A model generated the notes under the pieces. The model saw nothing but the letters and a program-made list of their open reading frames with translations, was not told the DNA's origin and made no database searches. Made by a program: the position numbers and the translations under genes. This document shows positions 14,777 through 32,100 of a stretch of DNA of 64,000 nucleotides, in pieces (positions within the stretch are counted from its first letter, which is position 1; every line of letters begins with the position of its first letter). Origin of the DNA: a virus; IMG/VR virus record IMGVR_UViG_3300050343_000185; one strand, written 5' to 3'.

Positions 14777-17073
14777 CCTCCTCGGTTTCTAAAATTTCTG
14801 ATAATAAATCTTGGACTTGATTTGGTTTCTCATCAATAGCATCTAACAAATCATCTTTGTTATCATATGTGTTTTGATAATAAGAAGTTTTCCATCCATA
14901 CTTGTATGTCTTCAGGAAATCACCTGCCATAACAGATACTGGGACCTCATTATTGTCAATAGTTCTCTGGATTATAACTCCAGTTGCCAGAAATTGCCTG
15001 ATCAAAGAACTTCTGCATAGCAGCGACAACTTTAATGTATCCATCGTTGCCCTTCATATCCCATAGAAGAGTGTAATTATTCTTGAGAGTACCATACTGA
15101 GGAACGATCTGTTTGAGTGGTCCTTTTTTAGACTTTTTAGTGGACAGATATCCTCTAGGTGGCTCGATTCCATTAGTTGCGTTTGACACAACGGAACTGC
15201 TCTCTGAAGGCATCTGTGCGGACAGTGTTGAGTGCCTAAGACCGTAGGTAGCGATAGATTCTCTAAGACTTTCCCAATCATGATTCAATTCCGTTCCACA
15301 GAACTCATCGATATCACGCTTGTAAGTGTCGATTGGGAGGATACCGTCTGCATACTTGGTTCTATCAAAATATCCACACCTGCCCTTCTCTTTAGCGATG
15401 GCATTACTTGACTTGAGCAAGTAATATTGGAAAGATTCAGACAAGTCGTGGACGAGTTTCCATGCTGCGGGATCATCATAGTGTTCTCCATTTTTTGCTA
15501 GGTAATGTGCGAGTCCGATATAACCAATACCAAGAGATCTACGATTCTTGGTGCTCAATTCTGCTGCTTCTACTGGATACTCCTGATAATCTACCAGTTC
15601 CTCCAGACCACGAACAGCAAGATCACAAATTTCTTCCAGTTCATCTTTCTTTGATACCTTACCTATGTTAACAGCAGACAAGATACACAAAGCAATCTCA
15701 CCGTTAGGGTCATCGATATGCTGAAGTGGTTTTGTTGGGAGAGTGATCTCCTGACAAAGATTACTCATGTAAACTTTGTCCTTAAAGGAAGAATGTGCAT
15801 TACAATGGTCAATATTCATAAGATATAATACGACCTGTCTCTGCTCTCTCCTTCAGAATATCTAGGATAAGTTCCTGTGCCCCGATAGTCTTTCTCGGAA
15901 CAGACTGATCTGATTCATAGTCCACATAGCGAGCGTCAAATGCATCAGTACCAAAAGCATCATAGAGACCTGGTACGTCATGCGGTGAGAAGAGGCTAAT
16001 CTCTCCATTCGCAATGAAACGTTCGTAGAAAAGTTTTGAAATTTGGATTGAGTAGTCAAGTTTCCTCACTCGATTGTCTTCTGTACCCTTATTATTCTTA
16101 AGAACAATAATGTCTTCTATTTCCTGGTGCCAGATAGGAAAGTGAACTGTAGCAGAACCACCTCTGATGCCGTTTTGTGTACAGCATCTGACAGTTGCTT
16201 CAAACTTTTTAAGGAAGGGGACAACACCTGTGTGTTGTACCTCGCCGCCTCTAATTTTAGAATTGATGCCACGAATTCTGCCTGCGTTAATACCGATACC
16301 AGCCCTTGTGCGACGTACCTACCAATAGCCATATCGCTGCTAAAGATACTATCGAGGGAGTCATCAACATCAACGAGAACACAAGATGCAAATTGACGGA
16401 GTGGTGTCCGAACTCCTGCCATGATTGGCGTTGGGATGTTGATCTTGTGCTTGCTGATTGCGTTGTAGTATCGTCTGACATAATCCAGTCTAGTATCTAT
16501 AGGATAATTTTGGAAAAGAGTTGCCGCAATCATCATGTACATGTATTGAGGAGTCTCATACATTTCACCACAACTACGATCCTGAACAAGATACTTATCT
16601 ACAACTTGGCGGAGACCAGCGTATGTAAACAACATATCACGATCATGATCCATGTAAGAATCAATCTTGTTCCACTCTTCCTGAGTATATTTACGCAAGA
16701 TACCATCATCATAAACACTTTTGGAGACACATTTTATTGCGTGATCCAACACAGTAGGGTATCCTCTGATCCAATCAGGACCAAAAACTTGCTTACGAAC
16801 TCCAAATAAAAGTAATCGAGCAGCAACAAATTGGTAGTTAGGATTCTCCAAACTAATCAGGTCGCTAGCAGAGCGAACAAGGATCTCTTGAATATCGCTT
16901 GTCTGAATCCCATCAAAGAATTGGAGACCGGAGTTCATCTCTACCTGAGAGGCACTCACACCGCTCCCTAGACCCTCACATGCCTCTTCTACCATCTTAT
17001 GGATCTTATCAAGGTTCAAACCCTCTACAGCGCCATTACGCTTCTTTACTTTAATACCGTGTCCGTTTGTCAT
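14751..17073 (-). CDS. nrdA: Ribonucleotide reductase class Ia alpha subunit, split by three single-base indels
   Basis: ATP cone N-terminus, PTPIMAG, ASCVL, SNLCQEI, TSYY, C-terminal CDSCKI. Indels at about 16307 (-1), 15826 (+1) and 14958 (+1). There is no inserted sequence between the fragments. Confidence 0.92.
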
Positions 17074-31079: not shown

Positions 31080-31114
31080 AGTTTAGCATTAAAAAAAGGC
31101 ACCGTCAAGTGCCT
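31080..31114 (-). terminator. Terminator after hsp20 overlapping a sigma70 promoter
   Basis: AGGCAC-TTGAC-GGTGCC-T7. TTGACG-N17-TAAACT, with TGn before the -10. Confidence 0.7.
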
Positions 31115-31125
31115 TTCGTTTTTAT

Positions 31126-31530
31126 TTAGAACCAAGTCTTTCGTTTCTGTTTCTCTGGTAGGTTCTTAACCAGAATAACTGTGAGAAGACCGTCTTCAAA
31201 TTTTACTTCTTCCACTTCTACATCATCTGCCATTTGCCAGTTGCGAGCAAAGGTTCTGTATGAGATTCCTTTATGAGAATATTTACGTTCTTTGTCTGGT
31301 GGTGCTTTATTAGCAGATACTGTCAGAACATTTCGTTCTGTTGTAACTTCAATATCTCCTCCTGAAAATCCTGCAAGAGCGACTTCCAGCAAGGTTCTGC
31401 CATCATGTCCGTCCACCACATTGTATGGTGGGTAATTTGATCCACCTCCCGCAATAGATTCCAGTCTGCTGAATGTTTCATCAAATCCGATTGAGTAGGG
31501 AGTATAAGTTTCCCAGTTGATATTTACCAT
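31126..31530 (-). CDS. hsp20: Small heat shock protein (Hsp20/IbpA family)
   Basis: YPPYN, LEVALAGF, HKGISYRTF, FEDGLLTV. Confidence 0.93.
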   Translation of the reverse strand: MVNINWETYTPYSIGFDETFSRLESIAGGGSNYPPYNVVDGHDGRTLLEVALAGFSGGDIEVTTERNVLTVSANKAPPDKERKYSHKGISYRTFARNWQMADDVEVEEVKFEDGLLTVILVKNLPEKQKRKTWF

Positions 31531-31623
31531 GTCCTTTAATAAGCGACGTTAACTTTAAGACCCCGAAGGCATCTTGCGTAAAAGGGGGATGTTTCCACCC
31601 CAATCCTCTCACAGTATTATTTA
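31531..31623 (-). promoter_or_regulatory. Late promoter plus structured 5' UTR of hsp20 (ROSE-like)
   Basis: TAAATA at 31618-31623, then hairpins with GAAA and UUCG loops and GUCGCU-N6-AGGAC pairing over the SD. Confidence 0.6.
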
Positions 31624-31674
31624 ACAATAACCGTTTAAACTTTAATAACGGTTTTCCTTATTAAAGATTGCGGT

Positions 31675-32100
31675 TTACTCTACCGCAGTTTTTTTACGAC
31701 CGATATTATACTTTGACTCAAGTGTCCACTCACCTTTCTCTCTGAAAGACAGGACTTTAATTTGATTCAAAGGAGCAAGATCAGTAATTGTTTCAATGTT
31801 AACAACAGTAATCAATCCCCAATCACTAAGCAATTGAATGATACGATTACGACGTTGCACATCATTCAAAGACAGGTTAGTATTTTTACCATCAAGAGCA
31901 AACAACTCTTTGAAGTGAACAATATAATACTTACCTTGCTTATGTAAAATATGACAGGACTGATAGATCTTTTTTTCTTTACGGGATGCTACTCCAATAC
32001 GTGTTAGAGTCTCTCGCACTTTAAGAAAATCATCTGGTTCTCCAAGAACCACTTCCACCATATCAGTTTGTTTCCACTGGATTATAGTTTCATCATTCAT
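31675..32100 (-). CDS. regA: RegA translational repressor
   Basis: PDDFLKVRETLTRIG, CHILHKQGKYYIVHFKELF. Confidence 0.95.
   Translation of the reverse strand: MNDETIIQWKQTDMVEVVLGEPDDFLKVRETLTRIGVASRKEKKIYQSCHILHKQGKYYIVHFKELFALDGKNTNLSLNDVQRRNRIIQLLSDWGLITVVNIETITDLAPLNQIKVLSFREKGEWTLESKYNIGRKKTAVE

Follow-up and report, generated by a model that had tools for sequence, protein, structure and literature searches.

A conserved leader of cyanophage hsp20 genes resembles the short ROSE-type RNA thermometers

Results

The hsp20 locus

The window analyzed here is a 64,000-nucleotide stretch of DNA from the IMG/VR virus record IMGVR_UViG_3300050343_000185. It belongs to a T4-like Synechococcus myovirus with ~95% identity to phage ACG-2014e. 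A leader sits between regA and hsp20 on the minus strand (Table 1). The top NCBIfam model for the window Hsp20 is IbpA (82.6 bits, which is under the cut-off of that model), and the protein is 33% identical to an IbpA-like protein of Elioraea and also 33% identical to E. coli IbpA. The terminator-like hairpin at the end of regA sets this gene apart from the hsp20 unit. The stem of the terminator past hsp20 is palindromic and was listed on the plus strand; TTTTTTT comes after the stem on the minus strand. The presence of this intrinsic terminator indicates that hsp20 is monocistronic. Possessing its own box, leader, gene and terminator, hsp20 is therefore a self-contained unit. A 48-aa ORF at 31481-31627 spans the leader, but was rejected as a gene because the indels and paired substitutions found in relatives are unlike a coding region.

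Elsewhere on the minus strand of the window (14956-17073), the large subunit of ribonucleotide reductase is seemingly split into two ORFs separated by ~300 bp. One, at 16117-17073, encodes the N-terminal part (ATP-cone and all-alpha), and the other, at 14956-15819, encodes the barrel domain. The split could be due to an intron, a homing-endonuclease insertion or a frameshift.

Table 1. Features of the hsp20 locus, in the direction of transcription
Feature	Position	Strand	Basis or remark
regA	31675-32100	-	Pfam Translat_reg, E 1e-43
Terminator-like hairpin across the regA stop codon	31669-31687	-	Consensus scan
A/T promoter-like box GTTAAATA, TAAATA core at 31623-31618	31618-31625	-	Sequence; 5 nt upstream of the hairpin 1 base
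Hairpin 1: basal helix GUGAGAGG/CCUUUUAC, internal loop AUU, apical GGGGUG-GAAA-CAUCCC	31578-31612	-	Fold
Hairpin 2: AAGAU-G-CC, loop UUCG, GG-GUCUU, bulged G31570	31557-31575	-	Fold; counterpart of ROSE_3 hairpin I
Spacer AAAGUUAAC, single-stranded, A/C-rich	31548-31556	-	Unpaired in fold; 9-14 nt and A/C-rich in relatives
Hairpin 3, SD-occluding: GUCGCUU, loop AUUA, AAGGAC; 6 pairs	31531-31547	-	Fold and alignment
hsp20 start codon AUG	31530-31528	-	1 nt past AGGAC
hsp20 CDS, 134 aa, IbpA-like small heat-shock protein	31126-31530	-	Pfam HSP20, E 1e-13
Intrinsic terminator past hsp20, 8-bp stem and T-run	31095-31116	-	Sequence and consensus scan

Structure of the leader and its promoter

Direct reading and RNAfold both reveal three hairpins in the minus-strand RNA between the TAAATA box and the hsp20 AUG (31530), as a sequence-only reading of this DNA had proposed. 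Hairpin 1 has an apical stem of GGGGUG (31601-31596) and CAUCCC (31591-31586) around the loop GAAA, and a base in which GUGAGAGG (31612-31605) is paired with CCUUUUAC (31585-31578). The earlier reading had described the apical stem, which is only the tip of a longer stem that includes the basal helix. The U-run of hairpin 1 is paired within the extended stem and thus provides no terminator tail. Hairpin 1 was rejected as the terminator of regA for this reason and because relatives keep the extended stem. Hairpin 2 had also been recognized, with its UUCG loop, but without mention of the bulged G31570. In hairpin 3, the anti-SD sequence UCGCU (31546-31542) faces the AGGA of the SD (AAGGA, 31536-31532), which is followed by C31531. 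The start-proximal hairpin, with AGGA paired to UCGCU and a single G bulged, is borne out at the level of prediction; the bulge is G31544 in both the predicted MFE and centroid folds.

The RNAfold structure of the leader contains all three hairpins and has an MFE of -29 kcal/mol (z = -2.3), and 6 of 200 shuffled sequences were equally stable. This single-sequence folding statistic is modest. It is the comparative evidence that places the leader beyond chance, since the arrangement is present in 305 of 326 loci and covariation is far above both shuffled and slid controls. Hairpins 2 (31557-31575) and 3 (31531-31547) have a local module in common, Y-[bulged G]-C-Y opposite R-G-R, which is kept in all clades.

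T4-type late promoters have the sequence TATAAATA ~6-8 nt before the transcription start site, and the published cyanophage motif is NATAAATA (PMC2984593). A TAAATA, TATAAT or TATAAATA-type hexamer lies a fixed few bases before the first hairpin in 182 of the 186 unique leaders without hairpin 1. In loci with hairpin 1, the box is shifted upstream along with the hairpin. The fixed distance and the joint movement of box and hairpin argue that transcription starts at the base of the first hairpin, which would place the start site in the window at about 31612. The box had originally been labelled a late promoter. Its presence at 31618-31623 is confirmed, but the label is putative; GTTAAATA agrees with TATAAATA at 6 of 8 positions, and many relatives have TATAAT in place of TAAATA. 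The hsp20 promoter may be either a gp55-type late promoter or sigma70-like.

Conservation and covariation in cyanomyoviruses

The hsp20 loci compared were taken from IMG/VR and from annotated reference phages, and fall into four Hsp20 clades: that of the window phage, Syn19-like, P-SSM2-like and P-HM2-like. Proteins of different clades are only 38-49% identical. Hairpins 2 and 3 are nevertheless found in 305 of 326 loci, from all four cyanomyovirus clades, and the loci without the arrangement are mostly cut off at contig ends. The order of elements in the 305 loci is an A/T box, 5-7 nt, a bulged-G hairpin whose 5' arm ends in Y-G-C-C and which has a tetraloop, an A/C-rich linker of ~11 nt, (C/G)U(C/U)GCU, a short A/U loop, AGGA(G/C) and AUG.

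Covariation was assessed in alignment A4, in which MAFFT aligned 71 diverse leaders without regard to structure. Standard pairs occupy 98.0% of its cells. Double compensatory changes are seen at 6 of the 13 pairs, of which two lie in the SD hairpin. The alignment has a covariation score of 0.357, compared to a shuffle mean of 0.107; none of 500 shuffles reached the observed score, and slid registers scored at most 0.058. Hairpin 2 occurs in all four clades, with 96.6% of cells paired and double compensatory changes in 4 of 7 pairs; at one position beside the invariant bulged G, U-G, C-G and U-A alternate. Hairpin 3 is paired in 99.8% of cells, and the position of the bulged G opposite the SD is invariant in the alignment. 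The 167 unique leaders with C-G as the outer pair come from three clades, and the 51 with G-C come from the window clade. The inner pair of the hairpin is U-A, turned to A-U in the P-HM2 clade. The anti-SD sequence among 220 unique leaders is UCGCU in 215 and UUGCU in 5, a change from C-G to U-G. The U-G wobbles indicate that the structure is specific to the sense RNA strand. The double changes in the SD hairpin are clade-wide and therefore represent few independent events. They show that pairing has been retained, beyond conservation of the SD letters alone. Both covariation across cyanomyovirus hsp20 leaders and conservation of the UCGCU/AGGA pairing in relatives, on which the sequence-only reading had been staked, are thus upheld.

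A covariance model (R2) built from the same alignment has one match in the 64-kb window, the hsp20 leader (61 bits, E 5e-15), and one match in a complete 192-kb relative, again the hsp20 leader. Hairpin 1 is present in 37 of the 305 loci, including that of the distant phage S-CAM1. Its basal helix is kept via changes between GU and GC or AU, and its apical stems vary in sequence yet all pair. Hairpin 1 is an optional 5' module, a third hairpin that fits a family with two to four hairpins.

Several observations concern individual loci. The SD-AUG spacing is 1-2 nt in the window clade (AGGAC then AUG, or A-AUG in some relatives; 31528-31536 in the window), compared to 4-9 nt in the other three clades. 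The clade with the short spacing is also the one in which G-C has replaced C-G as the outer pair of hairpin 3. In P-HM2 (NC_015284, PHM2_147; L086 287-361), the annotated hsp20 start lies upstream of the promoter box, such that the ORF reads through the whole leader. This annotation is probably wrong, and the true start is likely the in-frame ATG 72 nt downstream (L086:359), past the CUCGCU..AGGAG hairpin. Strong matches to the phage leader (37-67 bits) also occur in assemblies labelled as non-cyanobacterial genomes or MAGs (L342 3895-3941, L333, L340, L353, L363, L366, L347 and L365), among them a chromosome of a "Thermoplasmata archaeon" and a 188-kb contig of "Nonlabens xiamenensis 1Q3". 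The probable source of these matches is phage contigs that ended up in the bins or assemblies of such genomes.

Relationship to known thermometers

ROSE-like elements are defined by a small heat-shock protein (sHSP) gene, two to four hairpins, and a U(U/C)GCU sequence that pairs imperfectly with the SD and leaves a G bulged (PMC3669281, PMC4152365, PMC11182007). The phage leader runs up to the AUG of hsp20, an sHSP gene, and most relatives have two hairpins compared to three in the window. U(U/C)GCU opposite the SD and, by prediction, the bulged G are both found. The ROSE hallmarks claimed for the phage leader are therefore all present, and they are conserved. The sigma32-type promoter, which is typical of ROSE elements but does not define them, is absent in the phages, where a TAAATA/TATAAT box is found instead.

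Rfam did not return the ROSE resemblance for the window. A search at E<=10 with 1.2 kb and with 116 nt of the window gave no ROSE, PhotoRC or other meaningful family, and none of the Rfam ROSE models (RF00435, RF01832, RF02523) reached its gathering score in the window or the relatives tested. Among 12 diverse relatives, six have ROSE_3 (RF02523, Pseudomonas ibpA) as the top match, full-length and exactly on the leader, at sub-threshold scores of 19-28.6 bits against a gathering score of 43. The ROSE_3 consensus and the phage leaders have GAUGCC..GGGUC with a bulge, ACUCGCU and AGGAG in common.

The closest likeness is to the Pseudomonas ibpA thermometer (Krajewski, Nagel & Narberhaus 2013, PMC3669281). 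Both consist of two hairpins before an IbpA-type sHSP gene. Hairpin I contains GAUGCC..GGGUC with a bulged G and is followed by a single-stranded linker, and hairpin II contains ACUCGCU/AGGAG around a bulged G, with the core flanked by G-C pairs. Unlike those of Pseudomonas, both phage stems are shorter and richer in A-U, the box is TAAATA/TATAAT and not sigma32-type, and the carrier is a virus of cyanobacteria. The window clade differs further by the inverted outer pair of hairpin 3 (G-C), an AUG 1 nt past AGGAC and the extra 5' hairpin.

The three-hairpin E. coli ibpA thermometer, read from MG1655 (leader sequence CUCGCUGAUUUCAGGAG), has the same anti-SD and SD letters, CUCGCU..AGGAG. E. coli IbpA, at 33% identity, has R93 and Y34, whose equivalents occur in phage Hsp20. 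However, the upstream hairpins lack sequence kinship, the two-hairpin phage model misses the E. coli leader, and the E. coli SD hairpin is predicted to be ~2 kcal/mol more stable than that of the phage. The thermometers of cyanobacterial sHSP genes (Synechocystis hsp17 and Anabaena avashort and avalong; Cimdins et al. 2014, PMC4152365) also occlude the SD, and the avalong anti-SD is ROSE-like. However, avalong has a bulged U and one long hairpin 1, and hsp17 has a single hairpin. The phage leader is closer to the proteobacterial type.

A scan of 185,579 species genomes for the UUCG-loop pattern produced 40 matches, most of them by chance in GC-rich genomes and one within a 23S rRNA intron region. 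Four Elioraea genomes and one Reyranella genome were matched; no cyanobacterial genome was. In Elioraea tepidiphila, the motif lies behind a sigma32-like box and before the gene for a 143-aa IbpA-like protein, the one 33% identical to phage Hsp20. ROSE_3 is the top Rfam match to this leader (30.8 bits, E 6e-5), and the phage-derived model matches the same leader. The phage-derived model found only four weak matches in 151 alphaproteobacterial genomes, one of them spurious. Two further alphaproteobacterial ibpA-like genes have the leader. One genome (G146, 3.3 Mb) has GGAUGCC..GGGUCC, exactly as in many phage leaders, and ACUCGCU..AGGAG. The other (G117, AT-rich, 1.2 Mb) has CTTGAAA-N16-CCCATAT, then a hairpin, then CUUGCU..AGGAGG.

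The alphaproteobacterial ibpA-like leaders and that of Pelagibacter phage HTVC008M resemble the cyanophage leader in having a bulged-G hairpin and then (C/U)U(C/U)GCU..AGGAG before an IbpA-like gene. They differ in that the cellular copies lie behind sigma32-type CTTG..CCCAT boxes, and the phage-derived model scores only 19-22 bits on the alphaproteobacterial copies. The hsp20 gene of HTVC008M (L369 190-275) has a perfect TATAAATA box, the bulged-G hairpin AUGCC-AUAA-GGGU and the anti-SD variant UUGCU. The IbpA-like protein of G117 (L374) has an N-terminus that resembles HTVC008M Hsp20, and its gene has the same leader as HTVC008M, behind a sigma32 box.

Discussion

The results presented here reveal that the hsp20 leader of cyanomyoviruses contains a conserved, covarying structure that sequesters AGGA and abuts the AUG. 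With moderate confidence, the leader can be assigned to ROSE-type translational control, of the short ROSE_3 kind, and temperature probably sets the output of the phage chaperone. We read the phage leader and the short ibpA thermometer of proteobacteria (the ROSE_3 kind) as divergent relatives, and the phage leader may have been acquired with its gene. A proteobacterium would have supplied an ancestor of these T4-like phages with both the leader and an IbpA-like gene, and the sigma32 promoter would later have been swapped for a phage promoter.

In the mechanism proposed, the hsp20 mRNA would start a few bases past the TAAATA box. The stable bulged-G hairpin 2, preceded in the window clade by hairpin 1, may serve as a folding or stability module. 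The weak 3' hairpin, in which UCGCU is predicted to pair with the AGGA of the ribosome-binding site with one G bulged, would end 1 nt short of the AUG. According to the predicted structure, the 30S subunit would be largely excluded at low temperature. Warming would melt hairpin 3 and lead to more Hsp20 synthesis, by analogy with homologous elements that have been tested experimentally. In Pseudomonas, binding of the 30S subunit is controlled by hairpin II of ibpA, which melts over the range of 25 to 42 C. Deletion of the bulged G locks hairpin II shut, and hairpin I remains folded (PMC3669281). In the phage leader, by analogy, the bulged G would make hairpin 3 labile.

The predicted stability of the SD hairpin bears on how such a switch might operate. 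The hairpin of the window has a predicted dG37 of -2.0 kcal/mol alone and -3.5 kcal/mol with flanks. The predicted dG37 of the isolated SD hairpin is -1.1 to -2.0 kcal/mol in phages, -4.1 kcal/mol in E. coli and -5.5 kcal/mol in Elioraea tepidiphila. At 20 C, the phage hairpin (predicted at -3 to -4 kcal/mol) approximates the E. coli value at 37 C. These modelled stabilities are consistent with tuning to a colder host. Nearest-neighbour modelling has the SD >90% paired up to 42 C, far above the temperatures that marine Synechococcus meets, and opening would therefore need the help of the ribosome or be graded. In the window clade, AGGA is 1-2 nt from the AUG, which is too close for a classical SD, suggesting that the hairpin may mask the whole initiation region and not a working SD.

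Other functions of the leader were considered. The leader could be mainly an operator for phage Hsp20, to which free Hsp20 would bind and repress its own translation. Aggregated proteins would titrate Hsp20, such that the leader reports protein damage more than temperature, a role that is plausibly compatible with thermosensing. IbpA of E. coli, Cedecea and Vibrio represses its own translation by attaching to the ibpA 5' UTR, which needs R93, the aromatic Y34 and the cationic R97/K98 (PMC10474464). Of 241 unique phage Hsp20s, 239 have the R93 equivalent, 236 have the Y34 equivalent and nearly all have R97, and the bulged-G module common to hairpins 2 and 3 could be a putative repeated protein site. 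However, an R93-type arginine is kept in many sHSPs for structural reasons. Moreover, the phage proteins have V, N, A or G in place of K98, and repression in E. coli is lost with K98A (PMC10474464). A role mainly as an operator is unlikely. The two functions might also be combined, with the bulged-G modules of hairpin 2 and the SD hairpin docking the Hsp20 oligomer. Translation would then be freed by warming and also when misfolded proteins titrate Hsp20 away. Such a dual sensor is a tentative and rather doubtful proposal; if true, the virus would read the proteostasis state of the captured cell.

It is also conceivable that the leader is a relic of a ROSE element that no longer senses temperature. 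Hairpin 3 would then only hold translation at a constant low level, with the 5' hairpin guarding the mRNA from 5'-end-dependent decay. Hairpin 3 is predicted to be closed across 10-30 C, the SD-AUG spacing is degenerate in the window clade, and the ocean is without sharp heat shocks. In addition, a 5'-terminal hairpin is a known mRNA stabiliser, a role proposed for hairpin I of Pseudomonas (PMC3669281). Loss of sensing is nonetheless improbable, given that the bulged G and weak A-U upper stem are present in all 220 unique leaders, though a perfect or absent stem would do for a fixed rate, and that predicted stability in phage, E. coli and Elioraea follows the temperature at which the host grows. 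Recognition of the leader by another regulator, either the RegA repressor as RNA or host PhoB as a DNA Pho box, is highly improbable. T4 RegA binds A/U-rich initiation regions, and regA adjoins hsp20 in the window, P-HM2 and S-CAM1. However, loci in which hsp20 and regA lie apart (Syn19, P-SSM2) have an equally conserved leader, and the leader occurs in bacteria without RegA, which makes a RegA site unlikely. In the case of PhoB, the sequence ATTCAAACTCGCTTAAATA upstream of hsp20 in S-PM2d was predicted as a Pho box (PMC10976474). This Pho box was rejected, because the fragment did not bind PhoB in EMSA and S-PM2d hsp20 was not phosphate-regulated (PMC10976474). U-G wobbles and compensatory changes indicate an RNA structure and not a DNA site. 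The "putative Pho box" of S-PM2d130, ATTCAAACTCGCTTAAATA, corresponds to the anti-SD arm and loop of the hsp20 leader.

A full-text literature search found no paper describing a ROSE-type leader on cyanophage hsp20. RNA thermometers are known in phages, namely lambda cIII, SPbeta blyA and a sigma70 gene of gut Caudoviricetes (PMC11182007). Like the element proposed here, each is a phage-encoded temperature-responsive 5' leader. However, they belong to other structural classes and precede other genes, and none is ROSE-type or located before an sHSP gene. The sequence-only reading knew of no such element characterised in a phage; the search agrees with this for a ROSE-type leader on an sHSP gene, whereas phage thermometers of other classes were already known (PMC11182007).

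Finally, hsp20 belongs to the core genes of the T4-like cyanophages, a group that ranks among the most abundant marine viruses (PMC3037559). A ROSE-type leader in ~300 phage loci would represent a rare instance in which a regulatory RNA accompanied its gene into viruses and only the promoter was replaced. With it, the ROSE family would no longer be confined to alpha- and gammaproteobacterial chromosomes and would come to include much weaker, cold-tuned hairpins. If the ROSE-type reading is true, these phages own a built-in means to scale chaperone synthesis with sea temperature.
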